Positions 1,639 through 57,526 of a stretch of DNA of 64,000 nucleotides are shown one piece after another. A program made the translations under genes and the position numbers. The notes beneath the pieces were generated by a model. That model was not told the origin of the DNA, searched no databases, and saw only the letters and a program-made list of their open reading frames with translations. The stretch covers positions 96,001-160,000 of the forward strand of contig CAXXVO010000015.1 of the NCBI GenBank assembly GCA_963422645.2, written 5' to 3'. Each line of letters opens with the position of its first letter. Positions within the stretch are counted from its first letter, which is position 1. The stretch comes from Alphaproteobacteria bacterium (GTDB taxonomy: Bacteria; Pseudomonadota; Alphaproteobacteria; UBA828).

Positions 1639-2216
1639 ACCTTGGGGGCGGGGCGCTGATGAAGCGCAAGCCGCCGGCCGTGCGTTCGATCGGCATCGAC
1701 CGCGATGCGCAGGCGCTCGAGGCCTTCGTCTGCGACTACCCGGTCGATCTGGTTCACGGCTGTGCCCATGACTTCCTGGCCTCGTTCCCGTTCCTGGGCC
1801 CGGAGCTGGTTTACAGCGATCCGCCCTATCTGCACGCGACCCGCCGCTCGGCGCAGCGCTACCGCTTCGAGTACGAGGAGGCCGGCCACGTCGCGCTTCT
1901 CGCGCTGCTCAAGGCTCTGCCCTGCCAGGTCATGATCTCGGGCCATCCGTCGGCGCTCTATGACGAGGTGCTGGCGGGATGGCGCCGGCTGGCGCTGCAG
2001 GTCACGACCCAGGGTCTGGTGCGAACCGAGGTCGTCTGGTTCAACTACGCCCCCGACCGGATGCATTGGGCCAGCCACGCAGGCCGGAACTTCACCGACC
2101 GCCAGCGCATCAAGCGCAAGGCAGCCAACTGGGGCCGGCGCTACCAGGCCTTGCCGCCGGGCGAACGCCTCGCCGTGCTCGCCGCCATGATGGCCGTCGA
2201 GGCCGAAGACACGTGA
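1639..2216 (+). pseudogene. DNA adenine methyltransferase, interrupted near codon 30 (in motif I)
   Basis: Same as 37889-38554 from LGGGALMKRK onward; the N-terminus is replaced by IS-end sequence. Confidence 0.88.
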
Positions 2217-3751
2217 CGGTGTCGCACTGGCACGAAGACCTCGCCGCCCGTAACGAGGCCTTCTGCTGCCTGAAGGAGCTTCTCGAGCCATCATCCCTCG
2301 CAACCACTGTCGTCGTTGCCGTCCGGGAATGGGGGCAGGGGCTGCTGCGATCAGCCACCGCGCTCGCCCGGGAAAATGCCGCACTCGAGCAGGAGAACGC
2401 GGCCCTGCGCGAGCGCATCGCCGAACTCGAGCGCAGCGCGGCCCTCAACAGCACCACAAGCAGCAAGCCCCCCGCCAGCGACGGGCTCAAGAAGAAAAGC
2501 GGAGCCCAGAGGCGCACCCAAAGCCAGCGCGGAAAGTCCGGCGGGCCCAGTGGCGGCCAGCCCGGCCACAAGGGAACCACCCTCGCGCGGAGCGACAGCC
2601 CGGACCGTGTCGTCGATCACCACCCCTCCACCTGTTCCGGCTGTGGCGTCGAGCTCTCGGACGCCGACCGGCAAGGCGCGCCCGCCTGTCGGCAGGTCTT
2701 CGACGTACCCGAGCCGCAGCCTCTCGAGGTCACCGAACACCGCGCCCATCGCTGCCTCTGCGGCGCATGCGGCACGCTGACACGAGCCGCCTTCCCGCCG
2801 GGCGTCACCGCCCCGGTCCAGTACGGCCCTCGCATCACCGCTTGGGTGAGTTACCTGCTGTACGCCCAGTTCGTGCCCGAGAAGCGTCTGGCCGAACTCA
2901 TGAGCGACATCTTCGCGGTGTCCATCTCCACTGCCACGATCGCCGCCATGGGCCGGCGCACAGCGCAGCGCTTCGAGGGCTTCCTCGACCATGTCGCCGA
3001 TCTGATCCGCACGCAGGCGCCGGTCAAGCACCTCGACGAGACCGGCCTGCGTATCGCCGCCCGTACCCGCTGGCTCCATGTGCTGTGCACCCCGTTGCTC
3101 ACCGTCCTGCGCATCGGCGAGGGACGCGGCGATGTCGAAAAGAACCTGAAAGGCATCCTCGTCCACGACGACTTCGCCCCCTACTTCACCATCAAGGGCG
3201 TCCGCCACGGCGCCTGCAACGCACATCACCTGCGCGAACTCCAGGCCCTGATCGACATCGAGAAGGAGGAATGGGCGGCGAGCATGCACCGCCTGCTTCA
3301 GCGCGCGCGCAGGGCCGCCCGCTTCGCCCGTGAGAAAGACCGTCAAGTCCCCGCCTCCCTGGTGGCCCGCATCTCAAGGGCATGGGACCGTATCCTCGAA
3401 GAAGCCATCGCCTTCCATGAGGCCCAACCGCCGCTCCAGATCGCAAAGCGAGGGCGAAAGAAACGCCGCATCGGCCACAACCTCGCGCGCCGCCTTCAAA
3501 AGCATAAGGAGGGCTGCCTGCGCTTCCTCACCGACCTGCGCACGCCGTTCACGAATAACGAGGCGGAGCGTGACATCCGTATGAACAAAGTGCATGAGAA
3601 GATCTCAGGCGGCTTCCGCTCCCTGCAAGGCGCCTGCAACTTCGCCGGAATGCGCAGCGTCATCGTCACCGCTCGAAAGCAAGGCTGGAACATCCTGCAA
3701 ATCCTGGCGCACCCGGAACCGATGCAGCTGATCCCTATACTGCGCTCCTGA
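2213..3751 (+). CDS. IS66 family transposase (TnpC-like)
   Basis: Coiled coil, NS..SSKPP.SD, GGQPGHKG, CxxC...CxC zinc finger, DETG, CNAHHLREL, TNNEAERDIR. The GTG start overlaps the MTase TGA (GTGA). Confidence 0.93.
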   Translation: MTVSHWHEDLAARNEAFCCLKELLEPSSLATTVVVAVREWGQGLLRSATALARENAALEQENAALRERIAELERSAALNSTTSSKPPASDGLKKKSGAQRRTQSQRGKSGGPSGGQPGHKGTTLARSDSPDRVVDHHPSTCSGCGVELSDADRQGAPACRQVFDVPEPQPLEVTEHRAHRCLCGACGTLTRAAFPPGVTAPVQYGPRITAWVSYLLYAQFVPEKRLAELMSDIFAVSISTATIAAMGRRTAQRFEGFLDHVADLIRTQAPVKHLDETGLRIAARTRWLHVLCTPLLTVLRIGEGRGDVEKNLKGILVHDDFAPYFTIKGVRHGACNAHHLRELQALIDIEKEEWAASMHRLLQRARRAARFAREKDRQVPASLVARISRAWDRILEEAIAFHEAQPPLQIAKRGRKKRRIGHNLARRLQKHKEGCLRFLTDLRTPFTNNEAERDIRMNKVHEKISGGFRSLQGACNFAGMRSVIVTARKQGWNILQILAHPEPMQLIPILRS

Positions 3752-3912
3752 ACTTCTCCGGCTCATCCTGAGTATCGCTGTCCTCTCATCTTGTTCGCGA
3801 CGCGGCGTTCATCATCCTCTCGCGCTCAAGAGAGTAGGCACCCCCGCGGCGTGGGGGCGTTGACGCAAAAGGAACTGGCTTGTTCCATAAGAGAGAGGGG
3901 GTACCTGGGCAG

Positions 3913-4206
3913 TTACGATGAATCATCGAACGCGGACATCCGCTTGAGCGATGACGCGCGGCGTTCGGCCCGAGCCTCCCGTTCCCAAGCTGCGACATCG
4001 ACCCCCTGCGCCTTGAGCGAGGCCTGCCAGCGATCGAGAGCCTCCAGCTTGTTCTTCACGCGCTGATTCTCGTCACCCGCCGCCGCGCGGATTGCGCGAC
4101 GCAGCACTTCGGATTTCGACACGTTCCAGCGGCGCGCGAGCGACTCCAGCGTGCGCACGGTCTCGACATCCAGCGAATAGGTCGATTTGATCGTCGTTAC
4201 GACCAT
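3913..4206 (-). CDS. CopG/ribbon-helix-helix protein, probable TA antitoxin
   Basis: STYSLDVETVRTLESLARRWNVSKSEVLRRAI fits the RHH pattern. The stop codon is supplied by the IS end. A downstream ATG ATT CAT C (MIHL-like PIN start) is cut by the IS. Confidence 0.75.
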   Translation of the reverse strand: MVVTTIKSTYSLDVETVRTLESLARRWNVSKSEVLRRAIRAAAGDENQRVKNKLEALDRWQASLKAQGVDVAAWEREARAERRASSLKRMSAFDDSS

Positions 4207-4213
4207 AACGCTA

Positions 4214-4240
4214 AGTATGGCCGTACTCCAACTATGTCAA
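4214..4240 (-). promoter_or_regulatory. putative promoter/operator of the TA operon
   Basis: TTGACA (4240-4235) and imperfect palindrome AGTATGGCCGTACT (4214-4227) just upstream of ATG 4206. Confidence 0.45.
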
Positions 4241-4249
4241 GCCAACGAG

Positions 4250-5434
4250 TCAGGAGCCGGCAAAATAACGCTCCAGAACGCCGAGATAGATGTCCGCGAG
4301 CCGCTCCATCGCCTCCACCGGCACGCACTCGTCGGTGCGGTGCATGGTCCGGCCGATCAGGCCGAACTCGGCGACCGGGCAATAATCTTTGATGAAGCGC
4401 GCGTCCGAGGTGCCGCCGGTGGTGCTGAGAGTGGGGGTCCTGCCGGTCACGGCAGTCACGGAGTCGGCGACAATCGTGCTGAGCCGGCCCGGCGGGGTCA
4501 CGAAAGCCTCGCCCGAGACCTCGGTCACGAGCTCGTAGGGCTCGCCGGCCGCATCGAGGCATGCGCGGATGGTGCGCTTGAGACTCGTCCCGGTGTGGCG
4601 GTCGTTGAAGCGGACGTTGAAGCGCGCCGCTGCTGCACCGGGAATGATGTTCGTCGCCTCGTTGCCGACATCGATGGAGGTGAGCTCAATCCGGCTCGGC
4701 TGGAAGTGATCCGTGCCCTGGTCCAGCTCCAGCGCAAGCAGGGCATTGAGCAGGGTCACAAGACGGGGCAGGGGGTTGTCGGCGAGCATGGGATAGGCCA
4801 CGTGCCCCTGGCGGCCGGCGACGCGCAGTGTGCCGTTGAGGCTGCCGCGCCGGCCGATCTTCACCATCTCGCCGACCTCGTCGGGGTTGGTCGGCTCCCC
4901 AACCAGGCAGACATCGAGGGTCTCGCCTTGCGCGCCGAGCCAGTCCAACACCTTGCGCGTGCCGTTGACCGCCGGCCCCTCCTCGTCGCCGGTGATCAGC
5001 AGGCTGATGGGACCGGCCACGGCGCCGCCTGCGCCGAAGCGCGCCACTGCGGCGACGAAGGCCGCGATCGCCCCTTTCATGTCGCTCGCACCGCGCCCGT
5101 AGAGCACGCCGTCCTCCACTTGCGCCGCGAAGGGCTCGCGGGTCCAACCCGCACGATCCCCCGTTGGCACCACGTCGGTGTGGCCCGCGAAGCAGAAGTT
5201 GGGCCGGCCCTCGCCCCGCCTCGCGAAGAGGTTATCGACCCGCGCCGTGCCCGGCTCCTCGAAAGGCAGGCGGTGACACGTGAAGCCGAGCGTCTGGAGC
5301 GCGCCTTGAAGCACGTCGAGCGCGCCGCCATCCGCCGGCGTTACGCTCTCGCAGCGGATCAGCGCGCGGGCGAGCGCCAGCGGATGCGCGAGCGCCTCAG
5401 CGGATGCCAGGTCCTCCGTGCTCGCCCCGCTCAA
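4250..5434 (-). CDS. dapE: succinyl-diaminopimelate desuccinylase
   Basis: [35 protein letters not shown]; TTG start overlaps the dapD stop. Confidence 0.95.
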
Positions 5435-6276
5435 TTGCGAAGTAGCTCGTTGATCGAGGTCTTGGCCCGCGTGCCCGCGTCCACCCGCTTGACGATCACC
5501 GCGCAATAGAGGCTGGGGCCGGGCGAGCCGTCCGGAAGCGGCTTGCCCGGCAGCGAGCCCGGCACGACCACCGAGTAGGAAGGAATGCGCCCACGATGGA
5601 CCTCGCCGGTCTCACGGTCGATCACCCGCGTCGAGGCGCCGACGTAGACGCCCATCGACAGCACCGCGCCCTGCTCGACGATGACGCCTTCGGCCACCTC
5701 GCTGCGCGCGCCGACGAAGCAGTCGTCCTCGATGATCACCGGGTTCGCCTGGAGCGGCTCCAGCACGCCGCCGATCCCAGCGCCGCCGGAGATGTGGCAG
5801 TTCTTGCCGATCTGCGCGCAGCTCCCCACCGTGGCCCAGGTGTCGACCATGGTGCCGCTGTCCACGTAGGCGCCGATGTTCACGAAGGACGGCATCAGCA
5901 CCACACCGGGCGCGACGTATGCCGAGCGCCGCACAATGGCGCTGGGCACTGCACGGAAGCCTGCCTCTTGAAACCGGGCCTCGTCCCAGCCCGCGAACTT
6001 GGACGGCACCTTGTCGTACCAAGGCGTATCGGCCCCCGGCCCCCCCGGAATCGTCGCCATGTCGTTGAGCCGAAAGGAGAGCAGCACCGCCTTCTTCAGC
6101 CACTGATTGACGATCCACTCGTTGTCCCGCTTTTCAGCGACACGCGCCTCGCCGGAATCGAGCAGGGCGAGAGCGGCCTCCACCGCCTCCGCCGCGGCAC
6201 CGCCGCTCGTGGGCGAGAGCGTGTCGCGCTCCTCCCAGGCGGCTTCCACCGCGTGTTCGAGGTCTGCTGTATTCAC
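5431..6276 (-). CDS. dapD: tetrahydrodipicolinate N-succinyltransferase
   Basis: [41 protein letters not shown]; GTG start with GGGAGAGG upstream. Confidence 0.96.
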
Positions 6277-6299
6277 GGGCCTCTCCCTTGCTCCTTGCT

Positions 6300-7019
6300 T
6301 CAGCCGCCCGTGCCGTCCGCCGCCGGCGCGGGTAGCGCGGCGAGCCAGGCGGGTAGATCGTCGGTCACGTAATCGGGCGTGATTTGCTCCGCGCCGGACG
6401 ACGCCCAAGCGCTGTCGTTTTGCACCCAAACGGTGGCCATTCCGAGCGCGGCTGCCGGCGCGAGGTTACGCAGAATGTCCTCGAAGAAGATGGCCCGCGT
6501 GGGCTCGACGTCGTGCACGTCCGCGAGCCGCGCATAGGCTTCGGGATAGGGCTTCGGCACCCAGTCAGCTGCTTCGATATCGTAGATCTCGCTGAAGTGG
6601 TGGCCGATGCCGAGCCGTGCCATCACGCGCTTGGCGTAGGGGGCATCGGCGTTGGTGAAGACCAGCTTGCGGCCGGGCAGCCGGCCCAGCGCCGTCTCCA
6701 GGATCTCGCTCCGCGCGATGGGCGTGAGATCGATGTCGTGCACATAGTCGAGAAAGGGCGCGGGCTCCATGCCGTGCTTGAGCATGAGGCCGCGCAGCGT
6801 GGTGCCGTATTTACGGAAGTAGCCCTTCTGCAGCTTGTGGGCCTCCTCCCGATCCACATCGAATGCGCTGGCGATGTAGTCGCCGATGCGTTGGCTGACC
6901 TGGTCGAAGAGGTGCGAGCTCGACGGATAGAGGGTGTTGTCGAGATCGAATATCCAGGTGTCGATGTGAGCGAGGTCGGCGCCGCCCGGTGCCGTGCGCG
7001 CGCCGTCGGTCAGTTGCAT
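6300..7019 (-). CDS. pyrimidine 5'-nucleotidase (HAD family)
   Basis: [29 protein letters not shown]; usual dapD neighbour in Alphaproteobacteria. Confidence 0.9.
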
Positions 7020-7531
7020 TGGCCGCTGGAGCCCTCCGCGCACACCTTGTTGCCATCAATCCAGCGCGCCCCGCTGAGGTCGGCCTTGAGAAAATCGGTG
7101 GTGTCGAGCCGGGCGCCGGTGAAGTCGGCACCGCGCAGGTCGGCGCGGAAGAAGCGCGCGCGGCGGAGATCGGCGCCCTCGAACGAGGCGCCGGAGAGGT
7201 CCGACTTGGTGAAGTCGGTGCCGATCAGGCGCGCGCCGGCCCAGTTCGTATCCACCAGGACGGCGTCAGTGAACTTGGCGCGCCGGGCGTCGACGGCGCT
7301 GAAGTCGGCTCCGGTGAGGTCCGAGCGCGCGAAAAACCCGTCGCGCAGCGTGGCCCCGGCGAGGTCGACGTCGACGAAGGTCCGGTTGTCGAGAAGGCAG
7401 CGCCGCCAATCGACGCCTGGTTGCGGCGTGTCCGTGCACGCGGCTTGCGCGCCGGGTGCCGCGAGCGCAAGCAACGCCCCGATCAGCCCCGCCACCACGA
7501 CACTCGCTCGCCTCATTCTACCGGACACCAC
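7010..7531 (-). CDS. secreted pentapeptide-repeat protein
   Basis: Signal peptide, A(D/N)LxG-type repeats, flanking cysteines. Confidence 0.88.
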   Translation of the reverse strand: MVSGRMRRASVVVAGLIGALLALAAPGAQAACTDTPQPGVDWRRCLLDNRTFVDVDLAGATLRDGFFARSDLTGADFSAVDARRAKFTDAVLVDTNWAGARLIGTDFTKSDLSGASFEGADLRRARFFRADLRGADFTGARLDTTDFLKADLSGARWIDGNKVCAEGSSGQCN

Positions 7532-7554
7532 CTGAACCTATCCCGACGTGCCGC

Positions 7555-7779
7555 TCAGTCGCCCTTTGGGCCCAGTCTGTCGCCGCCCTCGGGCTCGTCG
7601 GCCTCATGATCGATCCGCTTACCGTCCTGCGCGCCATCGCCCCGGGCTGCCTCGACCTGCGTTGCTTGTCTTTCCGCCTTGGTGCGCCCTGTCCGCGCAC
7701 GGTTCGCCGCGCGTTGCTGCGCCTTCGCCGCCCTGTCGCGCTTCTTACGGAACTGGTTCAGGTTGACGACATCGCCCAT
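7555..7779 (-). CDS. DUF4169-like small basic protein
   Basis: MGDVVNLNQFRKKRDR...ANRARTGRTKAER signature. Confidence 0.8.
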   Translation of the reverse strand: MGDVVNLNQFRKKRDRAAKAQQRAANRARTGRTKAERQATQVEAARGDGAQDGKRIDHEADEPEGGDRLGPKGD

Positions 7780-7963
7780 GACCAAAGGCCTTTCGGTACG
7801 CCGGCAAACATGGTCTAAGAAACGCGGGGCCTCCCATCCGATCAGACCCGTCCGATCGAGAGGCAAGCCTAGACGAAATGATTGGGGCTGTTAACCGGAG
7901 TCGACCGGGCCGGCATCGCTCGGGCAAAGTGCCCGTCCTCTCCGCCTCGAGGCATGGCCAACG

Positions 7964-15641: not shown

Positions 15642-15642
15642 G

Positions 15643-16392: not shown

Positions 16393-17250
16393 TCACTTGC
16401 GTCGCGGTGCTGGCGGGGCGCCGTAGAGCGCAAGCCGCACCGCGCGCCACGCAGCCTCCAGCCCGCGGCGTAGCGTAGCGCCGTCCCTCGCAAGCAGGCG
16501 CACGCCGATGCCGGCCTCGTTGGGGAGCGCTGAAGCACCGCCATAGAACTCATCCGACGGCGTGAGAGCGCTGCGGAGAGCCGCCAAGATGGCCTCGCAG
16601 GTCGGGCTCCGGTGGGCGACGACGAAATTGCCCTGCGCGGGCCAGCGCGCGAGTTGCGCGCGGCCTGCCGCCAGCCGCTCGCCTGCGACGTCATAGCGCT
16701 CCAGGGCGAGAAGCCGGCCGCCCTCGTCGCGGATCCGCATCTCCGCCGCGAAGCTGTCAAACCGGCGGTCCTCGCCGCCCGGGTCGTGGTGGGCGAAGCT
16801 CTCGGACGCGACGACGGTGGCATCCGCTGCAGCCTCGATCTCCAGCACCGAGGTCAGCCGTGCGCCGGGGAACATGATCAGCGGGTCCGGCAGATACTCG
16901 AGCAACGCGCCGTCCGCAGCCTCCAACGCGACCGTCTGCCGCGCCGGCGACCGAGGCATGCGGTGCACGATGGTCGCCGCCTGGGTGGTCACATGGGCGG
17001 CGCTGCCGGCGCCTGCGGCGCAGGTCATCACGAGATCCTCGCCCTGATAGATGCCGCCGGAGACCGACTGGAGGTAGAGCGTCAGCGCCCCTGCCGGCGC
17101 CTCGTCGAAGTGGAATGGCCGGGTGATGTGGAAGGGATAGCCGACGCGCTGGCGCGCGATGTAGCTCGGCCCGTCGGGCGCCCGGGCGAAGCGGAGCGCG
17201 GCTTGTGGCCCCTCGTTGGGCCGGGCGGCCGGCATGGCATTGGCAGCCAA
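16393..17250 (-). CDS. ureD: urease accessory protein UreD
   Basis: YPFHITRPF, SGGIYQGE, TTQAATIVH, LEYLPDPLI; directly follows the urease alpha subunit. Confidence 0.85.
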   Translation of the reverse strand: MAANAMPAARPNEGPQAALRFARAPDGPSYIARQRVGYPFHITRPFHFDEAPAGALTLYLQSVSGGIYQGEDLVMTCAAGAGSAAHVTTQAATIVHRMPRSPARQTVALEAADGALLEYLPDPLIMFPGARLTSVLEIEAAADATVVASESFAHHDPGGEDRRFDSFAAEMRIRDEGGRLLALERYDVAGERLAAGRAQLARWPAQGNFVVAHRSPTCEAILAALRSALTPSDEFYGGASALPNEAGIGVRLLARDGATLRRGLEAAWRAVRLALYGAPPAPRRK

Positions 17251-17259
17251 AATACGAGC

Positions 17260-18969
17260 TCAGCGCAGCAGGTAGTTCTGGCCGAGGGTGATCTTGTCGA
17301 TCGGCTCGCAGGCAGCGAGCGTCCCGTCGACGAAGACCTCGAAGGTCTGGCTGTCGACGCGGATATCGGGGCAGGCGTCGTTGTGCAGCATGTCCTTCTT
17401 GGTGAGCTTGGTGAAGCTTCCGATCGGCAGGATCGGCTTGGCGAGGCCGAGACGGCCCTGCACGTCGATATCGAGCGCACGCCGATGGGCGAAGTTGGCG
17501 CTCAGCGTCGTTGGCGCCCGCCCGTAATGGCCGAACTGCGGCCGCATGATTACCGGCTCGGTGGCGAAATAGCTGCCCGAAGGATCGCCGCTCGCGCCCC
17601 AGGCGACGAAGCCGCCCTTGATCACGCCGAAGGGCTTCATCCCGAAGAAGGCGGGCTTCCAGGTCACGAGGTCGGCCATCTTGCCGGGCTCCAGCGAGCC
17701 CACGTATTGATCGACGCCGAAGGCGATCGCCGGGTTGATGGTGTACTTCGCGATGTAGCGCTTGATGCGCTCGTTGTCGGCGTCGGCGGTGGTCTCCTCG
17801 GGCAAGCGCCCGCGCTGGTCGCGCATCTTGCTCGCGAGTTGCCAGCAGCGCGTGATGACCTCGTTGATCCGCCCCATGCCCTGGCTGTCGGAGCCGAACA
17901 TGGAGACCGAGCCGATGTCGTGCAGCACGTCCTCGGCCGCGATTGTGCCGTGGCGCACCCGGCTCTCGGCGAAGGCCACGTCCTCCGGCAGGTCATAGCG
18001 CAGCAGGTGGCAGGCCATGGTCATGTCGAGCTGCTCGTCGAAGACGTTGACCGTGTAGGGGTTGGTCGGGTTGGTCGAGGACGGCAGGCAGTGCGGCTCG
18101 CCGTTGCAGCGGATGATGTCCGGCGCATGGCCGCCGCCGGAGCCTTCCGTGTGATACATGTGGATGGTGCGGCCCGCGATCGCCGCCATCGTGTCCTCGT
18201 AGAAGCCGGACTCGTTCAACGTGTCCGTGTGGATCTGGACCGGGAAGTCGTGCTCGGCCGAGGCACGCAGGCAGGCGTCGATGGTGGCCGGCATGGCGCC
18301 GTAGTCCTCGTGAATCTTCACGCCGATGATGGCGCCGTCGAGATGCTCGGCGATGGTTGCCGGGTCGTGGGAGGAGCCCCGGCCGAAGAAGCCGAAGTTG
18401 ATCGGCCAGGCTTCGGATGCCTCATGCATGCGGTAGGTGTTCCAGGGGCCGCCGCAGTCGATGGCAAAGAGCGGCCCCATGGTGCCGCCGATCATGGTGG
18501 TGAGCCCGCTGGCCAGCGCATGGTTGCACTGCTCCGCCGACAGCCAGTGGACGTGCACGTCGATCCCGCCCGGCGTCACGATGAGGCCGCCGGCCGGGTA
18601 GTAGGTGGTGTTGGGGCCGCAGACGAGATTGGGATCCACCCCGTCCTGGGTGTTGGGGTTGCCGGCCTTGCCGACGCCCGCGATCTTGCCGTCCTTGATG
18701 CCGATGTCGGCCTTTACCAGACCCAATACGGGATCGATGACGGTGGCGTTCTCCACCAGCATGTCGATGGCGCCGTCGGCTGCGGAGGTGTGGGCGTCGT
18801 AGGACATGCCGTCCCGCATCACGCGGCCGGCGCCGGTCCAGCACTCGTCGCCGTATGAGGTGTGGTCGTGCTCGATCTCGCCGATCAACGAGGTGTCGCC
18901 GAGCCTGATCTTGTCGCCCTTGGTCGGCCCGTAGTAGCGGGCATAGGTCTCGCGCGCGATCTTCACCAT
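17260..18969 (-). CDS. ureC: urease alpha subunit-like Ni-amidohydrolase (divergent)
   Basis: [60 protein letters not shown]. Confidence 0.85.
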
Positions 18970-18973
18970 CTGC

Positions 18974-19669
18974 CTATGCTCCCCGGAATCCGCCCGCCTT
19001 GGCGCGGGCGATCGCTTGCTCCTTCACCGCAGGCGAGTCGATCATGCCCTCGGTGAGACTGTTGAAGCCGCTGATCCGGCCGCGGCCGCCGAATTCCACC
19101 AGCGCGACCTCCTTCTTCTGGCCGGGCTCGAAGCGGACGGCGGTGCCGGACGGGATGTCGAGACGCAGACCGAAGGTCGCCTGCCGGTCGAATTCGAGCG
19201 CCCGGTTGACCTCGAAGAAGTGGAAGTGGCTGCCGATCTGCACCGGGCGGTCGCCGGTGTTGGTGACGGTGACCGACCCCGTCCTGCGGCCCGCGTTCAG
19301 CTCGACCTCCTCGTCCGGTGTGATGATCTCGCCGGCGCGGGGGCCGGGCGGGGTCTCGGCCTTACCGGGGCGGATCGGCTGATGCACGGTGATGAGCTTG
19401 GTGCCGTCCGGGAACATCGCCTCCACGTGAACCACCGGAATGAGCTCGGGCACGTCCGACAGCACGTCATCCGACGTGAGGATCTCCGCGCCGTACCCCA
19501 TGAGGTCCTTGAGCGAGCGGCCTTCTCGGGCGCACATCAGGAGCTCGTCGCATATCAGGGCGACGGCCTCGGGGTGGCTCAGCTTGATGCCGCGGCGCCT
19601 GTGCTCGCGCGCGAGCTGGGCGGCCGTGAATATGGTGAGCCGCTCTTTCTCCGTCGGATTGAGGTTCAT
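18974..19669 (-). CDS. fused urease gamma-beta subunit (UreAB)
   Basis: [11 protein letters not shown]...[14 protein letters not shown] (gamma) fused to [19 protein letters not shown]...AVRFEPG (beta). Confidence 0.92.
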
Positions 19670-28525: not shown

Positions 28526-28690
28526 GTAACTGCCCAGGTACCCCCTCTCTCTTATGGAACAAGCCAGTTCCTTTTGCGTCAACGCCCCCACGCCGCGGGG
28601 GTGCCTACTCTCTTGAGCGCGAGAGGATGATGAACGCCGCGTCGCGAACAAGATGAGAGGACAGCGATACTCAGGATGAGCCGGAGAAGT

Positions 28691-30229
28691 TCAGGAGCGC
28701 AGTATAGGGATCAGCTGCATCGGTTCCGGGTGCGCCAGGATTTGCAGGATGTTCCAGCCTTGCTTTCGAGCGGTGACGATGACGCTGCGCATTCCGGCGA
28801 AGTTGCAGGCGCCTTGCAGGGAGCGGAAGCCGCCTGAGATCTTCTCATGCACTTTGTTCATACGGATGTCACGCTCCGCCTCGTTATTCGTGAACGGCGT
28901 GCGCAGGTCGGTGAGGAAGCGCAGGCAGCCCTCCTTATGCTTTTGAAGGCGGCGCGCGAGGTTGTGGCCGATGCGGCGTTTCTTTCGCCCTCGCTTTGCG
29001 ATCTGGAGCGGCGGTTGGGCCTCATGGAAGGCGATGGCTTCTTCGAGGATACGGTCCCATGCCCTTGAGATGCGGGCCACCAGGGAGGCGGGGACTTGAC
29101 GGTCTTTCTCACGGGCGAAGCGGGCGGCCCTGCGCGCGCGCTGAAGCAGGCGGTGCATGCTCGCCGCCCATTCCTCCTTCTCGATGTCGATCAGGGCCTG
29201 GAGTTCGCGCAGGTGATGTGCGTTGCAGGCGCCGTGGCGGACGCCCTTGATGGTGAAGTAGGGGGCGAAGTCGTCGTGGACGAGGATGCCTTTCAGGTTC
29301 TTTTCGACATCGCCGCGTCCCTCGCCGATGCGCAGGACGGTGAGCAACGGGGTGCACAGCACATGGAGCCAGCGGGTACGGGCGGCGATACGCAGGCCGG
29401 TCTCGTCGAGGTGCTTGACCGGCGCCTGCGTGCGGATCAGATCGGCGACATGGTCGAGGAAGCCCTCGAAGCGCTGCGCTGTGCGCCGGCCCATGGCGGC
29501 GATCGTGGCAGTGGAGATGGACACCGCGAAGATGTCGCTCATGAGTTCGGCCAGACGCTTCTCGGGCACGAACTGGGCGTACAGCAGGTAACTCACCCAA
29601 GCGGTGATGCGAGGGCCGTACTGGACCGGGGCGGTGACGCCCGGCGGGAAGGCGGCTCGTGTCAGCGTGCCGCATGCGCCGCAGAGGCAGCGATGGGCGC
29701 GGTGTTCGGTGACCTCGAGAGGCTGCGGCTCGGGTACGTCGAAGACCTGCCGACAGGCGGGCGCGCCTTGCCGGTCGGCGTCCGAGAGCTCGACGCCACA
29801 GCCGGAACAGGTGGAGGGGTGGTGATCGACGACACGGTCCGGGCTGTCGCTCCGCGCGAGGGTGGTTCCCTTGTGGCCGGGCTGGCCGCCACTGGGCCCG
29901 CCGGACTTTCCGCGCTGGCTTTGGGTGCGCCTCTGGGCTCCGCTTTTCTTCTTGAGCCCGTCGCTGGCGGGGGGCTTGCTGCTTGTGGTGCTGTTGAGGG
30001 CCGCGCTGCGCTCGAGTTCGGCGATGCGCTCGCGCAGGGCCGCGTTCTCCTGCTCGAGTGCGGCATTTTCCCGGGCGAGCGCGGTGGCTGATCGCAGCAG
30101 CCCCTGCCCCCATTCCCGGACGGCAACGACGACAGTGGTTGCGAGGGATGATGGCTCGAGAAGCTCCTTCAGGCAGCAGAAGGCCTCGTTACGGGCGGCG
30201 AGGTCTTCGTGCCAGTGCGACACCGTCAC
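28691..30229 (-). CDS. IS66 family transposase
   Basis: Same protein as 2213-3751. Confidence 0.93.
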   Translation of the reverse strand: MTVSHWHEDLAARNEAFCCLKELLEPSSLATTVVVAVREWGQGLLRSATALARENAALEQENAALRERIAELERSAALNSTTSSKPPASDGLKKKSGAQRRTQSQRGKSGGPSGGQPGHKGTTLARSDSPDRVVDHHPSTCSGCGVELSDADRQGAPACRQVFDVPEPQPLEVTEHRAHRCLCGACGTLTRAAFPPGVTAPVQYGPRITAWVSYLLYAQFVPEKRLAELMSDIFAVSISTATIAAMGRRTAQRFEGFLDHVADLIRTQAPVKHLDETGLRIAARTRWLHVLCTPLLTVLRIGEGRGDVEKNLKGILVHDDFAPYFTIKGVRHGACNAHHLRELQALIDIEKEEWAASMHRLLQRARRAARFAREKDRQVPASLVARISRAWDRILEEAIAFHEAQPPLQIAKRGRKKRRIGHNLARRLQKHKEGCLRFLTDLRTPFTNNEAERDIRMNKVHEKISGGFRSLQGACNFAGMRSVIVTARKQGWNILQILAHPEPMQLIPILRS

Positions 30230-30891
30230 GTGTCTTCGGCCTCGACGGCCATCATGGCGGCGAGCACGGCGAGGCGTTCGCCCGGCGGCAAGGCCTGGTA
30301 GCGCCGGCCCCAGTTGGCTGCCTTGCGCTTGATGCGCTGGCGGTCGGTGAAGTTCCGGCCTGCGTGGCTGGCCCAATGCATCCGGTCGGGGGCGTAGTTG
30401 AACCAGACGACCTCGGTTCGCACCAGACCCTGGGTCGTGACCTGCAGCGCCAGCCGGCGCCATCCCGCCAGCACCTCGTCATAGAGCGCCGACGGATGGC
30501 CCGAGATCATGACCTGGCAGGGCAGAGCCTTGAGCAGCGCGAGAAGCGCGACGTGGCCGGCCTCCTCGTACTCGAAGCGGTAGCGCTGCGCCGAGCGGCG
30601 GGTCGCGTGCAGATAGGGCGGATCGCTGTAAACCAGCTCCGGGCCCAGGAACGGGAACGAGGCCAGGAAGTCATGGGCACAGCCGTGAACCAGATCGACC
30701 GGGTAGTCGCAGACGAAGGCCTCGAGCGCCTGCGCATCGCGGTCGATGCCGATCGAACGCACGGCCGGCGGCTTGCGCTTCGTCAGCGCCCCGCCCCCAA
30801 GGTGGCTTTCGATGTAGACGGAGTGCGGCGGCATCAGCGCAATCAGCGCTTGGCACAGACCTGCTGTCGCCTTCGAGCCGAAATACCCCAT
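30226..30891 (-). CDS. DNA adenine methyltransferase (Dam/D12-like), IS passenger
   Basis: MGYFGSK, IESHLGGGA (motif I), YSDPPY (motif IV), E.VWFNY; M37T relative to copy 3. Confidence 0.88.
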   Translation of the reverse strand: MGYFGSKATAGLCQALIALMPPHSVYIESHLGGGALTKRKPPAVRSIGIDRDAQALEAFVCDYPVDLVHGCAHDFLASFPFLGPELVYSDPPYLHATRRSAQRYRFEYEEAGHVALLALLKALPCQVMISGHPSALYDEVLAGWRRLALQVTTQGLVRTEVVWFNYAPDRMHWASHAGRNFTDRQRIKRKAANWGRRYQALPPGERLAVLAAMMAVEAEDT

Positions 30892-31128
30892 GGACCGCTC
30901 CCGTCACGCGAGAGAGCAGTCCATAGTCCCGCAACTCTATGAGGTCAAGAACCAATCGCGGTGGCAGAACCAGGCCGCGGCCGCCGCCATAATCACCGTC
31001 CTCAACTCAGGATTGGGGTACCTGGGTAGTTACGATTTGTCATTTTGGGCCAGTGGATTGAGGCGTTTCTCGTTCGGAGTTGGTGGAAAGGGCTTGACGG
31101 GAATTTCGGGAAATGACTCAACAACGAC

Positions 31129-48004: not shown

Positions 48005-48044
48005 GCAGCCTGAAACGCCGCGTTCCGGACCTGCGCGCGGCCCC

Positions 48045-48755: not shown

Positions 48756-48909
48756 GGTGCTCGTGTTCTCCTTCGCCAACGGTCGATGAGGTTGCCCCTT
48801 CGCAGCGGCTGTTTGCCCTATCGCGGCGCGGTCGGCAAGCGTGCGGGCGTTGGCGGGTGTGTTGGCGGGTGTGGTCCCGTGCCCTGCGCCGTGACACCAT
48901 GGCCCAGCC

Positions 48910-49904: not shown

Positions 49905-49988
49905 GCACCCGATGCCGCGTCCGCGCCGTGCACGCGGCGAACAAGGTGAGAATTTGCGAGACTACGTGAGACTCAATGAGATTCGGGG

Positions 49989-50243: not shown

Positions 50244-50547
50244 GATCCGAAGTCCTCGCGTTTCGCTTCGAGAACACCTCGAAGGGCATCTCCTGAGGAC
50301 TCACGTAATCGGCATAGCCATTACGACAAATATCGAATGTTCATCGATTCCATAAGAAACTCATATGAAGCGCCGAACACCAGGTGAAGCCGATCGCCCG
50401 GTCGCGGGCAGCGACGCAACGGATCGCTCCTCACGACTGGTAAAGTCGGGAGCGGCACACCAGATCGGTGTATAGGAGCGGCATGAAGACGATGCGAAGG
50501 CTTGGGTTGCGTCGGCGCCAGTCTAGGATGGGCCGGATGGACCGGGC

Positions 50548-51171: not shown

Positions 51172-51340
51172 CCCCCCTACTCCCCCCAGACCTCGGCGAG
51201 GAAGCGCAGCCAGTTCTCGCCCATGACCTTGCGGATGCGGCCCTCGGTCCAGCCGGCACGCTCCATGGCTTGGGTGAGGTTGGGGAGCTGCCCGATGGTC
51301 TCCACGCCCTTCGGGTTGGACATCGGGGTGAACTTTACGA

Positions 51341-53228
51341 GTAACTGCCCAGGTTCTTGCTGTGAAAATTCTCTGGGATTCGGCACAACGCTACCCACGC
51401 GACGCCCGTGTGCTCCTCTGTGGTCGCCGGGTTTCACAGCTCACGATGCCCCTCTTGCGGACTGCGACCGGTAAGCTACCCCGATGTGGCCCGAAGTCCG
51501 CCCGCGCGACGGGCACCGATTTTCATTCTATGGGGTGGTCCAGCACGGCGTCGACCATGATCGTTTATGAGAATGGCTCCGCTGTTGGAGAACCCGTGCC
51601 AGGTGAGCTTACGCGCACTTGACGGTGGCGATGAGCCGATCCGATGGGCTGGTCAGGGCTTCGATGATATTCCAGCCCTGCTTTCTGGCGGTGGTGATGA
51701 CGCTGCGCAGGATGGCGAAGTTCTCGGCCCCCTGCGCGGACCGGAAGCCCCCGGAGATCTTCTGGCGCAGCTTCATCATCCGAAGGTCGCGCTCGGCCTC
51801 GTTGTTCGTGAACCCGACCTCGAGGTCGATCAGGAACCGGAGCACCGCGCATTTGTGGTCGCGCAGCCTCAAGGCCGGATTGTGACCGATCCTTCGCTTC
51901 CGGCGCTTCTTCCTCTTGCCAGGCGAGAACGGTGGTTGGCTCTCGTGAAAGGCCAGCGCATCGGCGATGATCTCGTCGTATCGGCGCTCGATCAGCGCCA
52001 CAAGCCTCGCCGGAACGGCGATATCCTTGTCCAGCGCGATGCGGGCGGCGCGATTGGCTCGGCGCAGGAGCTGCTGCATCCGCCGGGCCCAAGCCTCCCC
52101 TTCGATGTCCACCAGCGCCTGCAACTCCCGCAGGTGATGGGCGTTGCACAGGCCGTGCTCCACCCCTTCCATCGCGAAGTACGGCTTCCAGTGATCGTGC
52201 ACGACGATGCCGGAGACACCCGAGAGCAGGGCGCCGCGCTTGCCGCTGACCCGGTACGCCGCCAGCAGCGGCGTGCAGATCACATGAAGCCACTGCGTCT
52301 GACCGCCGATCCGCAAGCCGGTCTCGTCCATGTGTTTCACCCGCGCCGTGCCCGCCGCCAGGTCCTGTATGTGCAAGGCCGCGTCCCGCAGCCGCTCGGC
52401 CGCCCTCTCGCTCATCGTCGCCAACGTCGCAGCCGTCACCGGCGCGCCGAAGAGCTCGGCCATCACCTGCGACAGCCGATCCTCCGGCAGGAAGTGAGCG
52501 TGCTGAAGGTAGACCGCCACCCCGGCAATGCGCGGGCCGTACTGCACCGGCGCCGACACCCCGTCGGGGAACGCCGCCCGGGTCACCGTCCCGCAATGCC
52601 CGCAGCACTTGGCATGCGCCCGGTGCTCGGTCACCTCCAGGGGGCTCGGCTCGGGCAGATCGAACACCTGGCGGGCGACGGGCGTTCCCGCCCTGGCCGC
52701 GTCCGAAAGCGGCGAACCGCATCCCTTGCAGGAAGCCGGGACGTGATCCTTCACCCGATCCGGGTGATCGGCGCGGCGCAGCGTCTTGCCCTTGTGGCCG
52801 GGCTGGCCACCGGGCTTGCGGCCCGATTTGCCGCGCAGGCTTCGGGTTCGCCGCTTCGAATTCGGCTTCCTCAGCCCATCGCTCGAAGGCGGCTTGCCGC
52901 TGTTGCCGCTGTTGAGGCCGAGACGGCGCTCCAACTCCTCGATGCGCTCGACGAGACGCGCGACTTGCTCTTCCAGCCGCGCGTTCTGCTGCCGAAGCCA
53001 GGCATTTTCCTCCCGAAGCCGGGCGTTCTCCTCCTCCAGGCGGGCGATCTTCTGCGCGGGCGTTTCGGGCGCTGCTCCCGTCGAAGGGCCGCGCGGCGAC
53101 TCGGGATTGCTCATGTCGTTGTTGAGTCATTTCCCGAAATTCCCGTCAAGCCCTTTCCACCAACTCCGAACGAGAAACGCCTCAATCCACTGGCCCAAAA
53201 TGACAAATCAGACGACCTGGGCAGTTAC
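51341..53228 (-). mobile_element. IS66-B copy 2 (intact, 1888 bp, single-ORF ISBst12-like organisation)
   Basis: 14-bp IR GTAACTGCCCAGGT; perfect 8-bp TSD CTTTACGA (51333-51340, 53229-53236). Confidence 0.96.
51609..53114 (-). CDS. IS66 family transposase
   Basis: NSGNSGKPPSSD, DETG, CNAHHLREL, TNNEAERDLR. Confidence 0.94.
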   Translation of the reverse strand: MSNPESPRGPSTGAAPETPAQKIARLEEENARLREENAWLRQQNARLEEQVARLVERIEELERRLGLNSGNSGKPPSSDGLRKPNSKRRTRSLRGKSGRKPGGQPGHKGKTLRRADHPDRVKDHVPASCKGCGSPLSDAARAGTPVARQVFDLPEPSPLEVTEHRAHAKCCGHCGTVTRAAFPDGVSAPVQYGPRIAGVAVYLQHAHFLPEDRLSQVMAELFGAPVTAATLATMSERAAERLRDAALHIQDLAAGTARVKHMDETGLRIGGQTQWLHVICTPLLAAYRVSGKRGALLSGVSGIVVHDHWKPYFAMEGVEHGLCNAHHLRELQALVDIEGEAWARRMQQLLRRANRAARIALDKDIAVPARLVALIERRYDEIIADALAFHESQPPFSPGKRKKRRKRRIGHNPALRLRDHKCAVLRFLIDLEVGFTNNEAERDLRMMKLRQKISGGFRSAQGAENFAILRSVITTARKQGWNIIEALTSPSDRLIATVKCA

Positions 53229-54166
53229 CTTTACGAGCGGGCGGGCATCGCCCTTGTCGTTGGTGATCCAGTCGAAGAACTCCTGGCCGTAGCCTTGGGT
53301 GAAGTCGGTGCCGAAGGCGACCGAGTCCTCGCCGGCGACCGAGATCACGTGCTCCATCGCCCCCACGTAGTCGTCCACCGTCGAGTGCTCGCCGCCGCTG
53401 AGGAACGCCGGGAACATGGTGACCCCGATCATGCCGCCCTGCTCGGCGATGAGTCGAAGCTCCCCGTCGCCCTTGTTGCGCTGGTGCGGCTTGAGGGCCG
53501 AGGGCAGGCAGTGGGTGTAGGCGACCGGCTTCGAGGATTCGCGAATCGTCTCCTCGGACGTGCGGGAGCCCACGTGGCTCAAGTCGATCAGCATCCCCAC
53601 CCGGTTCATCTCGGCCACCAGCTCGCGGCCCCAGTCGCTGAGCCCAGAGTCGCGGCTCTCGTAGCAGCCGGAGCCCGCGAGGTTCTGCGTGTTGTAGGTG
53701 AGCTGGGCGATGCCGACGCCCACATCCTTGAAAAGCTGGACCGCGCCCAGCTTGTCCTCGAAGGCCGACGTGTTCTGGAAGCCGAGGATGATCGCCGTGC
53801 GGCCTTCCTCCTTGGCCCGGCGGATGTCGGCGGCGGTGCGCGCCTTGACGATCAGGTCGTCGTGGTCGCGGAACCAGCCGTTCCAGCGGGCGACGTTGGC
53901 CATGGTCTCGGCGAAGCCTTCCCACACGCAGCAGGTGCAGTTGGCAGCGGTGAGCCCGCCCTTGCGCATGTCGCGGAAGACCTCCTCCGACCAGTTGGAG
54001 ACGATCAGCCCGTCGATGACGATCAGATCCTCGTGCAGCGTACTCACGTCACGTCCCTCCCCCGGTGCGCCGCGCCTGGCGGGCGCTTCCGCCCGATAGC
54101 CCGTTGTCTCCCCCGACTGAGGGGCTAAGATACGGTCACCCTCTGCGCGCGCGAAGGAGAGATATT

Positions 54167-54628
54167 ATGCCCTTGCTCGACCTGCACCACGTGGCCATCA
54201 AGTCCAAGAACCTCGAAGAGACGGTAGCGTTCTATTGTGACGTGCTCGGCATGGAGCAGGTCGAACGCCCGGAGTTCTCGTTCCCCGGCGCCTGGCTCCA
54301 GATGGGCGAAACCATGTTCCACATCTATGGCGGCGACCCCGCCAAGACCCACAGCGGGAACTACAAGTACAACCAGCGAGTCTCGCCGATAGACCATATC
54401 GCGCTCCGGGCGTCGGGCTTCGACGAGATGAAGAAGAAGCTGATGAAGCACAAGTGCGATTGGCGCCAGATGAACATCCCGGACTTCAAGCTCTGGCAGC
54501 TCTTCGTGCTCGACCCGAGCGGCGTGGTCATCGAGCTCAACTTCGAAGTGGAGAAGGAGCCGAAGGGCAGCAAGGGCCCGTCCGGGCAGAAGAAGTACGA
54601 ATTCGGCCGCTTCGCCGCCGCCGCCTGA
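54167..54628 (+). CDS. VOC/glyoxalase family protein
   Basis: LHHVAI, FYCDVLG, DHIAL, DPSGVVIEL; RBS AAGGAG. Confidence 0.88.
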   Translation: MPLLDLHHVAIKSKNLEETVAFYCDVLGMEQVERPEFSFPGAWLQMGETMFHIYGGDPAKTHSGNYKYNQRVSPIDHIALRASGFDEMKKKLMKHKCDWRQMNIPDFKLWQLFVLDPSGVVIELNFEVEKEPKGSKGPSGQKKYEFGRFAAAA

Positions 54629-55053
54629 GGCACCGCACGCCACGCCGGCCGCCCGACAGGAGCCGGCACAAGCCTGTTCAGGATCGCGGAACCCGCGGCA
54701 CGCCACGGGGCAGGGTGTCGTGCCGCGGCAGATCGTCCCCCATCTCCAGCCACGGCATGCGTTCGCGCACGAAGACGTGCCGCTCCGGCGCGAGCGTCTC
54801 TGGCTTGTCGAGCGTACCGGCCATGATGTGGACCTCGCCGGGGTAGACCGCCGCCACGTAGGTGAGCGGCGTGCCGCAGGCGCCGCAGAAGGTGCGCTCC
54901 ACCCGGGGCGAGCTCTCGTACGAGCCGGGCGTGCCGGCGACGAAGGCAAACCCGGTGTCACTCACACCGACGAAGGTCGAGACCGGCGCGCCGGACGAGC
55001 GCCGGCACTCCTCGCAGTGGCAATGGGAGACCCAGAGCGGCCCGCCCTCGGCC

Positions 55054-57526
55054 CAATGGCATTCACTTAGCGGTTTTCGACTGTTCACTTAAGGAGTCGT
55101 GTTCTTGCGCTGTCGGTTGCGTGCGTTTCTGTCGTTCAGGTGTTCAGGCGACGGCCCGCTTTGCGCGTGCCCACTTGCCGCGGGGTTTGCGCGACCTGCG
55201 TTCGCAGGACCGGCCGGGGCGCGGGCGCTGACGCGCCTGGTTGATGCAGGAGAGGACATGGCTGAGGGTTTCGGCGACCATCGCCGTATGGCGCAGCAGC
55301 AGCGCTTCGAGGTTGCGCGCGACGGTGGCGAGGCCGTTGCTGAAGTTGGCTTTCATCGCCGGCTTGCCGTCGGCAGGGCGCTCGGCGTCGAGGCTTGCGT
55401 TGCTGCGGTTGGTGAAGAGCCGGGTCATGGCGATGAGGTTGAAGTGGGCGAAGAGCTCCTGGCGGACGCCGCGCTCGGTCTGGCTGTGGAAGGCCTCGAC
55501 GGCCATGGCCTGTTTCGAGGTCTTGTAGAGTTCCTCGATTCCCCAGCGCGCGTGATAGAGCTCGGCCAGTTCCGCGACGCTCCAGGCCTTGGGGTCGAGG
55601 AGGGTGGTGGCGAGGATGAAGACCGTGCTGCCGATGCGGTAGCGGACCAGTCGCAGGCGCAGCGGGGTGGCGTCGACGTGCGGCGTCTTGCGGCGCAGCT
55701 TTCTCAGGGTGTCCTTTCCGGGAGCGACGGTGATCGGCGCGTCCGTGCGGCCGTCGGCGATGAAGGCGTCGAGGGCGGCGCCTGCCTTCTTCTTGATCCG
55801 GAACACGGGGTGCAGGCCGCGGGCGACATGGGCGTGCAGCATCTCCCAAGAGTAGTAGCCGCGGTCATAGACCACGATGTCGTTGGCCGAGAGCGCCTTG
55901 AGGTGGGCGAGGGCGGCCCTTCTTTCGTCGCCGTGCGCGACCAGGTCGAAGTCCACCGGGATGTTCGCGTGCAGCCGGTAGAGGCAACTCAGCAGGCCCT
56001 GCGGGTAGTGGGCCGCCTCGGAGGGCGTGCGGTAGCCGGCCTTGAGCAGCGGCCGCGGCAGGTTGAGCTTGGAGCCGTCGACCGCGAACACGCGGTGGCC
56101 CTTCCAGGCCGGGCCGTCGGCGCGCTTGAGGATCTCGGCGTGCAGCGTCTTGAACACCGCCTCGTCGACCTTGGCCCGCGCCATGCACATCGCCGAGGCC
56201 GAGACCGGCGCCGGCTGCGGCAGTGCGACGCCCAGGACCCGGCACTGCTCCCACAGCCCGGCCAGCGTCGTGGCGTAGCCCGCGCGGCCGTTCGAGAACG
56301 CCAGCCGGAAGATGAAGAGCATGACGAGAAGGGTGTCGAGGACCCGCCGGCGGCTCTGCCACACCCGGTCGTGATCGGCGGCCACCGCCGCCAGTGCGCC
56401 GATCAGGTCCTGCCACAGCGCCACGAAGGGATCGTCCGGCGCCAGCGCTGCCGGCCGTGTCCTGTTCCCGCGCCGCGCCGGCCGCGGGCCTTCGAGCAGG
56501 ATCGAGCGGAAGTCCGGCGTCAGCGGGTAGACGTAGACGCTTTTGCGGGTCTTGCCCTTGCCGCCCCCGGTCTCGCCGAGACAGCGCCAGTTGGCCGCGC
56601 GGTAGCAGGCGCCGTCGAAGAGGCTGGGGTCCACGAAGGTCTCCACCAGAACCGGGCGCGCTCCGAAGCGCGCCTCCCAGTCGCCGGGCAGCTGGCGCAG
56701 CGCCATCGACAGCGCTTTCGACGCCAGGTTGTCGACCCGGACCCAGGGAAAGATCAGGAAACGCGTGTGACCCACGACCAGATCGAGGTGCTTGCGGAAG
56801 CCTTCCGCCGGCCACCCGATCCACTCGTCGCGGCAGGGCAGCGTGCGCGACGCCCGGGCAAACAGAAGGCAGCCCAGAGGCCGCCCGTGGCGGTCCAGGA
56901 GAAAATAGCGCAGATGCGCGCCGACCAGACGATGCAGCCCGAGATAGTGGTGGCGCGCGACGAACTCGTTCCACAGCCCGCCCTCCTCCTTGCCCGCCGC
57001 AATCGACAGGCGCAGCGGCATCAGCGCGGCCAGGTCCTCCGCGATCGCCGCGGCCGGCGCCGTCCGCTCGCTCCGGGCCATCGCCTCCTGCGGCCCCCGC
57101 ACCTGCGCCTCGTCCCGCGCCGGCAGGGTCAGGATGCCCAGCCGCTCCAACTCCTCCAGCATCCGCAGGCAGACCGCGACACGGTTCCGCCCGCTCGGCG
57201 CGCGCCAGTTCAAATGCTCGCAGATCGTGTGCCCGAGCTCGTTGCGGCTGATCGCCGGAAACAGCGCCACCGTCTCCTGGATGTCGGCAATCTGCCGGCG
57301 GGTCAGACGTCTGCCGAAAAAGGTCGTCGACTTCAGCGCGGTGATGCGGGGGTCCATGGGCCGGCTCCACTGACAGGGGGACAGCCACAGTGTGCCAAAG
57401 CACACGCCGCCGGTCAATCCCCCTCGTGCGGGAAACGCCGAGACCGACAATCCACACAAGAAATCAACTCGTTACGACACCACCAAAAAACCCCGGAACA
57501 ATCTTCGCGCCAAATGAATGCCATTG
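55054..57526 (-). mobile_element. IS4-like element (2473 bp) with a DUF4338-fused transposase
   Basis: IR CAATGGCATTCA; 10-bp TSD GCCCTCGGCC (55044-55053, 57527-57536). Confidence 0.93.
55144..57357 (-). CDS. DUF4338/DruA-like domain fused to an IS4-family DDE transposase
   Basis: N-half: WNEFVARHHYLG, RDEWIGW, RFLIFPWV, NLAS, ETFVD, GACYRAANW. C-half: AVDGS, YDRGY, YHARWGIEELYK (YREK). Confidence 0.88.
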   Translation of the reverse strand: MDPRITALKSTTFFGRRLTRRQIADIQETVALFPAISRNELGHTICEHLNWRAPSGRNRVAVCLRMLEELERLGILTLPARDEAQVRGPQEAMARSERTAPAAAIAEDLAALMPLRLSIAAGKEEGGLWNEFVARHHYLGLHRLVGAHLRYFLLDRHGRPLGCLLFARASRTLPCRDEWIGWPAEGFRKHLDLVVGHTRFLIFPWVRVDNLASKALSMALRQLPGDWEARFGARPVLVETFVDPSLFDGACYRAANWRCLGETGGGKGKTRKSVYVYPLTPDFRSILLEGPRPARRGNRTRPAALAPDDPFVALWQDLIGALAAVAADHDRVWQSRRRVLDTLLVMLFIFRLAFSNGRAGYATTLAGLWEQCRVLGVALPQPAPVSASAMCMARAKVDEAVFKTLHAEILKRADGPAWKGHRVFAVDGSKLNLPRPLLKAGYRTPSEAAHYPQGLLSCLYRLHANIPVDFDLVAHGDERRAALAHLKALSANDIVVYDRGYYSWEMLHAHVARGLHPVFRIKKKAGAALDAFIADGRTDAPITVAPGKDTLRKLRRKTPHVDATPLRLRLVRYRIGSTVFILATTLLDPKAWSVAELAELYHARWGIEELYKTSKQAMAVEAFHSQTERGVRQELFAHFNLIAMTRLFTNRSNASLDAERPADGKPAMKANFSNGLATVARNLEALLLRHTAMVAETLSHVLSCINQARQRPRPGRSCERRSRKPRGKWARAKRAVA

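Follow-up and report, generated by a model that had tools for sequence, protein, structure and literature searches.

Insertion sequences (IS) are usually viewed as transposase-only elements, and the locus described here raises the question of why two unrelated IS families should each carry, inside their ends, a second conserved module on a fold known from DNA adenine modification. The locus is a window of 64,000 nucleotides (the whole stretch of DNA that was analysed; contig CAXXVO010000015.1, positions 96,001 to 160,000, assembly GCA_963422645.2), handled as contig C16 of an IS-rich 5.9-Mb alphaproteobacterial genome. In it, an element of the IS66 family, called element A here, couples its transposase gene to a gene for a Dam-like protein related to the plasmid protein Upf31, and an element of the IS4 family bears a DUF4338 (DruA) domain fused to its transposase. 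A sequence-only reading of the window had proposed that both modules let their elements modify themselves against restriction, under selection in a host or community rich in restriction systems. The explanation favoured here, on balance, is that the two elements follow a common pattern without a proven common function: each would hold a portable accessory module on a DNA-adenine-modifying fold, and that of element A would act as a brake of the Upf31 type. Neither module needs host restriction as its explanation, and the two conserved modules move among unrelated transposase families.

Two insertion sequences with modules inside their ends

37747..40254 (+): complete element A, IS66 family; 2508 bp, 19-bp terminal inverted repeats with one mismatch, a single TnpC
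37832..37860 (+): predicted promoter and palindrome; -35 TTGACC, 17 nt, -10 TATGGA; overlapped by the predicted operator
37839-37858 (+): predicted operator CATAG-N10-CTATG, overlapping the predicted promoter of the Upf31-like gene
37889..38554 (+): Upf31-like gene; 221 aa, Dam/D12 fold without a target-recognition domain, C-terminal helical hairpin at residues 181-220
38551..40089 (+): IS66 TnpC transposase; 512 aa, with a GTG start that overlaps the stop of the Upf31-like gene (GTGA)
55053..57526 (-): complete IS4-family element; 2474 bp, terminal inverted repeats, 9-bp target duplication
55144..57357 (-): 737-aa fusion transposase; helical N-domain (about 1-80), then DUF4338/DruA GNAT, then IS4 DDE
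56542..57096 (-): DUF4338/DruA domain, residues about 88-272; predicted Mom-like GNAT fold (phrog_1384 Mom-like, 8e-4)

The two elements are genuine insertion sequences with recent activity, and each has its module inside its ends. Element A is present in 36 full-length copies genome-wide, and a target duplication of 8 bp accompanies 22 of these; the empty site of the copy at 37747 is spanned by contigs from two other sequencing runs, and the element itself is also covered by contigs of other runs. Its TnpC belongs to the IS66 family (PF03050, 6e-41; NF033517, 289 bits against a cut-off of 180), its ends are GTAA-type inverted repeats, and its contents are the Upf31-like gene and tnpC only, with no tnpA or tnpB of the canonical IS66 group. 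In its GTAA ends, 8-bp duplication and TnpC alone it resembles the single-gene IS66 elements of the ISBst12 group. The IS4 element has 10 full copies, with the 9-bp duplication at nine and the 737-aa open reading frame (ORF) at full length in six; its DDE domain is identified by NF033592 (157 bits against a cut-off of 115). Several of the IS4 copies break at one position within DUF4338 (near window 56640-56646).

Much of the structural description offered by the sequence-only reading was borne out. Foldseek and profile search give a Dam fold for the gene that precedes the IS66 transposase, and its coupling to the transposase is seen in the overlap of its stop with the GTG start, an overlap that recurs in a sister element (element B) and in four relatives. 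Likewise, DUF4338 is fused upstream of the DDE domain in the IS4 element, where DruA/DUF4338 (PF14236, 1e-31) lies ahead of DDE_Tnp_1 in a single 737-aa ORF. This domain is carried by 106 of the best 120 matches to the DDE part (lengths up to 758), and the fusion is near-obligatory in this IS4 lineage. Each module is a conserved and integral component of its IS family; the two families are unrelated, and the folds are that of Dam in one and that of Mom in the other. The label ‘adenine modification’ suits the modelled folds, but it is not a label for the activity of either protein. In IS with passenger genes (‘transporter IS’) an extra gene lies between the ends, as in element A; unlike such cargo, the extra genes of element A and of the IS4 element seem to belong to the transposition unit as conserved components.

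The IS66 module as a relative of Upf31

The 221-aa protein has DPPY at position 90 and a motif-I-like ESHLGGG. Profile searches match it to PADLOC MTase_II (6e-22) and PHROG 56 (2e-17); its score against TIGR dam (TIGR00571; 1e-4, 22 bits) is far below the cut-off of 115, it has no Pfam match, and a PDB sequence search with the single protein gave none. The model of the protein (predicted local distance difference test, pLDDT, 92.7) has EcoDam and DpnM as its top Foldseek matches, and a profile search matches 2dpm (6e-10); as in Dam/D12 enzymes, the fold is a Rossmann fold in which motif I precedes DPPY. The target-recognition domain is absent, since about 20 profile positions in the IS protein span a region of about 110 residues in DpnM. 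A 73-row alignment, built from 72 of 150 matches selected for full length, has D90, P91 and P92 invariant, and H replaces the F of Dam enzymes in motif I in 24 of 26 sequences. A homodimer prediction scored 0.10, giving no answer on whether the C-terminal domain dimerises.

Judged from sequence, the Dam-fold gene belongs with Upf31. It is 45% identical to Upf31 of pBP136 (101/222 residues, E 8e-68) over the full length, C-terminal domain included, and relatives in a plasmid search are named upf31.0; the family is also known from phages and from conjugative plasmids (134 of the 196 matching plasmid records). Upf31 of IncP-1beta plasmids is described as giving no GATC methylation by restriction digest and no signal by SMRT (single-molecule real-time) sequencing (Elg et al., 2025; PMC11997246). 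The same report describes a 17.5-fold autorepression and a fall of reporter activity from 4.76 to 0.09 units for which the C-terminal domain is required, and proposes the repeat CAGCATCG as the Upf31 operator (PMC11997246). The IS protein shares with Upf31 of pBP136/R751 this full-length identity, the ETHLGGG/DPPY motifs, the C-terminal helical domain and the promoter layout TTGAC-N2-CAT(A/C)G-N10-C(T/G)ATG. It differs in lying inside an IS and being coupled to a transposase, in its arms (CATAG, not CATCG) and in that the IS has no KorB partner. A term search of the paper by Elg et al. gave no IS context for Upf31 (PMC11997246). On mobile DNA, many genes labelled ‘DNA adenine methylase’ may be regulators.

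Selection has kept the gene. It is intact in 36/36 full copies of element A, and dN/dS among IS-borne Upf31-like copies is 0.12-0.24.

A promoter, an operator and a portable cassette

The upstream layout in the IS is TTGAC-N2-CATAG-N10-CTATG. Among 79 of 80 related loci, which comprise 24 distinct sequences, conservation is 92-100% and complementarity 92-100% at arm positions 9-12 and 23-26, against 29-46% in the spacer. The pattern CATAG-N10-CTATG occurs 59 times in the genome, every time in element-A context; with spacers of 6-9 or 11-14 the count is 0-1. At the corresponding position of the upf31 promoter, pSN1104-59, a plasmid of the IncP-1beta group, reads TTGAC-AG-CATCG-N10-CGATG. In pBP136 the right arm is degenerate at that position, and four further repeats with a 10-nt spacer lie close by; among more distant plasmid and phage relatives the strict pattern is present in 2/7.

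The partner families of the Upf31-like gene rest on 80 loci, many of which are copies from the same genomes. An IS66 TnpC lies directly downstream in 72 of them, in two clades that are about 30% identical, and an IS701-type transposase is the partner in six (Pfam was run on two). The IS701-type element is 2785 bp long, multi-copy and has its own ends. It matches element A at 82% over 731 nt, a stretch bounded exactly by the -35 box and the stop overlap, and its Upf31-like protein nests among the IS66-borne ones. These exact homology edges, the nesting and the dN/dS values indicate that promoter, operator and gene form one portable, selected unit. The IS701-type element also has about 500 extra bases before the cassette (L064:4446-5000), including a small divergent ORF.

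The Upf31-like protein probably represses this promoter and limits the transposase in cells that already hold copies, a view built on the comparisons above. It would bind the predicted operator ATAG-N10-CTAT over its own -35 and -10 boxes, and binding would shut down the single promoter of the Upf31-like gene and the transposase, every copy being affected in trans. The element would then produce its transposase chiefly when it enters a repressor-free cell. With its DPPY intact the protein may methylate that operator only, although such methylation is doubtful. The cassette, with its exact edges and readable operator, is testable as an IS-encoded repressor, and it predicts both a binding site for Upf31 and a possible reason why methylation has not been seen.

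Several points weigh against the brake. A consensus promoter scan called no promoter at the predicted site; the scan missed it because the -10 box is without the last T. Alphaproteobacterial promoters often have no final -10 T, and the -10 of gammaproteobacterial copies is TATGCT. The (near-)invariant DPPY argues for retained catalysis. The full-copy numbers of three IS66 elements (66 for a passenger-free element C, 36 for A and 14 for B) fit a brake, but they come from three elements in one genome. In the report on Upf31, operator binding is a proposal only, and Upf31, a relative only 45% identical to the IS protein, was tested once, in E. coli (PMC11997246). For the second module, an anti-restriction role of DUF4338 is possible.

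Copies and relatives of element A

28526..31033 (-): second complete element A; Upf31-like gene 30226-30891, TnpC 28691-30229
1639..3916 (+): 5'-truncated element A without left end, promoter/operator and about 29 passenger codons; TnpC 2213-3751 retained
51341..53228 (-): passenger-free IS66 element C, 1888 bp; a relative of element A with TnpC 60% identical and the same end type, serving as internal control

The sequence-only reading had begun its span at 1639. A copy of element A does start there, but it is truncated on the 5' side and its left end is gone. About ten pieces (440 bp) of the right end of element A, with a common inner edge (window near 3479-3916), are scattered in the genome and are possibly a miniature derivative or an insertion hotspot. 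Sister element B (G000:C10:290745-293200; L087) is 2461 bp long, has 14 full copies and a Upf31-like gene 86% identical to that of A. Its operator is TATAG-N10-CTATG, and A and B may cross-repress.

A second copy of element C is in pieces (window 31034-32771 and 40320-40456). It belongs to an IS nest (window 28526-40456) in which two tandem Transposase_29 (PF21804) elements interrupt the passenger-free element C, one copy of element A is inserted in the second Transposase_29 element, and another adjoins the left end of C. The end of a Transposase_29 element carries a 75-bp tandem duplication (window 32765-32914).

The IS4 module as a Mom-like domain

The model of residues 1-290 of the fusion (pLDDT 90) has Mu Mom (8bv8) as rank 1 in Foldseek and in a wide search, with Z 14.9, root-mean-square deviation 3.1, 158 aligned positions and 18% identity; the next match has Z 12.6. 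Residues of Mom described as important are H58, Y59, R111, S124, D149, R151 and Y159, together with an essential insertion at 175-209 (PMC13219725). Five of these, H58, Y59, S124, D149 and Y159, align with H137, Y138, S213, D243 and Y252, all conserved counterparts, and H137, S213 and Y252 show no variation across 119 fused and 83 stand-alone homologues. Mom R111 is probably invariant R199, an assignment from spacing only that the sequence alignment did not pair. Near Mom R151 most homologues have K or R and the window copy has L. The essential, helix-turn-helix-like insertion of Mom (175-209) falls in a gap of the DUF4338 alignment. At the sequence level the domain and Mom are only marginally similar (hhalign E 0.095, probability 0.6%; HMM 2.3 bits), and a PDB sequence search with the DUF4338 profile gave no match.

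The IS4 domain is similar to Mu Mom in its GNAT fold and in the conserved counterparts of five active-site residues. It differs in being fused to a DDE domain, in its extra N-terminal helical domain, in having neither the 175-209 insertion nor a com gene, and in the uncertain counterpart of R151. Features of the Mom family include Gly-tRNA-dependent modification of adenine and resistance to restriction. An atlas search with the N-terminal 86 residues of the protein returned mobile-element clusters only, all unnamed. The palindrome GTGTGC-N4-GCACAC over the IS4 promoter was considered as a second operator and set aside, as none was seen by eye upstream of homologues.

DUF4338 has already been called a GNAT, with a DUF4338-DndF fusion and DruA of Druantia type I as examples (PMC10853773). 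PF14236 is common to DruA and the IS4 domain, and the difference is that here it lies within IS elements. No Druantia gene was found among the window proteins scanned, and the fusion has no PADLOC match. The IS4 module would be a conserved Mom-like acyltransferase that works with the transposase; its target may, at somewhat less than an even chance, be adenine of element DNA, and a protein or tRNA is the alternative target. Its action would be local, during transposition. Mom is reported to be lethal on overexpression, and R111 to be Mom-specific among GNATs (bioRxiv 10.1101/861617); the lethality favours local over broad action. The link between DUF4338 and Mom offers a concrete chemical hypothesis for DruA.

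DUF4338 beside other transposases

In a neighbour scan of 47 DUF4338 neighbours picked from 62 metagenome loci, 37 are transposases, four belong to other families and six have no match. The transposases are of IS66 (19), ISAs1-type (14), DUF4277-type (2), Tn5-type (1) and IS701-type (1). With IS66 neighbours, DUF4338 is 3' in 14 and 5' in five. DUF4338 is thus not confined to IS4, and the genome studied has it in two further settings as well, 3' of transposases of the IS66 family and in a fusion with an ISAs1-type enzyme. The position 5' of the DDE domain, presented as common to both modules, holds for the two elements of the window but not for these IS66 arrangements of the same genome.

Several further arrangements were seen. 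At L081:1686-5002 and L083:2193-5200, IS66-type transposases, 700-810 aa in length and extended by a long stretch at the N-terminus, are followed by a stand-alone 293-aa DUF4338 gene, a layout common across the genus. A fusion of DUF4338 and an ISAs1-type transposase is split by a canonical IS66 (L086:3310-4695), and a large serine recombinase element lies within DUF4338 genes of IS66 elements (L084:4131-7262 and L085). A full-length DruA match (1e-81) at G039:C3:1267359-1268237 (L200), in a genome with many IS-borne DUF4338 genes, is unlike the IS-borne type and is probably a true Druantia gene.

Each part has a known relative, and the arrangement was not found in the literature searched. Among the titles and abstracts listed, none is on DUF4338 or Upf31-like genes in IS; two papers of the Aravind group on Mom-like families may anticipate the DUF4338 link.

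Competing explanations

The functions of the two modules may be unrelated and the common theme a coincidence of folds: one element would have a repressor, and the GNAT of the other would acylate a tRNA or a protein such as the transposase, a host factor or a target of the addiction type. This is rather unlikely. In its favour, generic GNATs reach Z 12-12.6, only about 2 below Mom, the sequence similarity to Mom is marginal, and gene positions and partner families differ between the modules. It has to account for five Mom residues with conserved counterparts, for R111 being probably R199, and for Mom coming first in two aligners.

A second possibility is that both modules are active adenine modifiers and that IS have repeatedly recruited two such folds for epigenetic self-control, one as a repressor confined to marking its bipartite operator and the other as an acyltransferase delivered in cis that tags element ends or new insertions. 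This reading shares ground with the explanation favoured here and goes beyond it, and is unlikely as a whole. The catalytic motif is near-invariant, the site specified by 10 bp is confined to the element, and the fusion would deliver DUF4338 in cis. Such a site is expected about four times in E. coli (4.6 Mb / 4^10), and SMRT motif-finding could overlook it on an expression vector that has none of the plasmid repeats. Against this, H for F in motif I may weaken binding of S-adenosylmethionine, and the window DUF4338 has L near Mom R151 where most homologues have K or R. If true, insertion sequences would encode an epigenetic control of transposition, DruA would gain a first activity, and the operator geometry would be that of the long-unexplained IncP-1beta repeats.

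The proposal of the sequence-only reading, that both modules modify adenines broadly and shield the element or carrier DNA from restriction in the manner of mom and Hia5-type enzymes, is improbable, and anti-restriction is equally improbable as a common purpose. Its premise is in print: in Mu-like prophages the non-specific adenine methylases Hia5, Hin1523 and Nma1821 replace mom at its locus, methylate widely and have DPPY (PMC3299994). The IS66 protein is like them in its Dam-related fold, in DPPY and motif I and in its place on mobile DNA, no solved structure is closer to DUF4338 than that of Mom, and the Upf31 family is on conjugative plasmids and in phages. As described, Hia5-type enzymes keep a target-recognition region of about 90 residues (about 80-170), with DPPY at 191-194; this region is absent from the IS protein. 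Its absence could mean low specificity, but the relative Upf31 gave no methylation signal (PMC11997246). Mom lethality is awkward for a resident multi-copy element, and DUF4338 is without the insertion that Mom needs. Among the three IS66 elements, the passenger-free element C has the most copies. No swap of the two modules on the same backbone was found: TnpC identity across groups is at most 31% (14 against 17 sequences), and Upf31-bearing and DUF4338-bearing IS66 transposases form separate clades (35 sequences; a quick tree with long branches flagged), which excludes a same-slot swap among them.

The survey of IS passengers against restriction-modification (R-M) systems covered 21 genomes of one genus, a small sample of kin that includes partly incomplete metagenome-assembled genomes, with all counts to be read as ‘at least’; its markers were HsdS, N6_N4_Mtase and N6_Mtase, which are not nucleases. 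DUF4338 load did not track the three markers (rho -0.30, 0.19 and -0.13, respectively, none significant). With IS66 load it gave rho 0.87, which is partly circular. Upf31-like counts gave rho -0.08 to 0.27 against the R-M markers, none significant, with only four carriers; in a sample of the phylum the gene is in 3/401 genomes, the own genome included, not enough to set against R-M content. In G037 and G044, the two genomes with the most R-M markers, there is neither a DUF4338 match nor a Upf31-like gene of the IS type, only one distant partial match each. The host is average in R-M content, its R-M sum being 10 against a genus median of 9, and it has no Mrr-type (PF04471) match.

Neutral cargo, or an artefact of assembly, is scarcely credible as an account of the passengers: element C does transpose well without one, but they are under purifying selection, intact in 36/36 copies of element A and conserved across phyla, and contigs of other runs cover the element.

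Other features of the window

An IS21-family element (istA/istB; window 59363-61913) has near-identical copies by the dozen. Urease genes lie at window 16393-19669, with a fused gamma-beta subunit gene, ureC and ureD.

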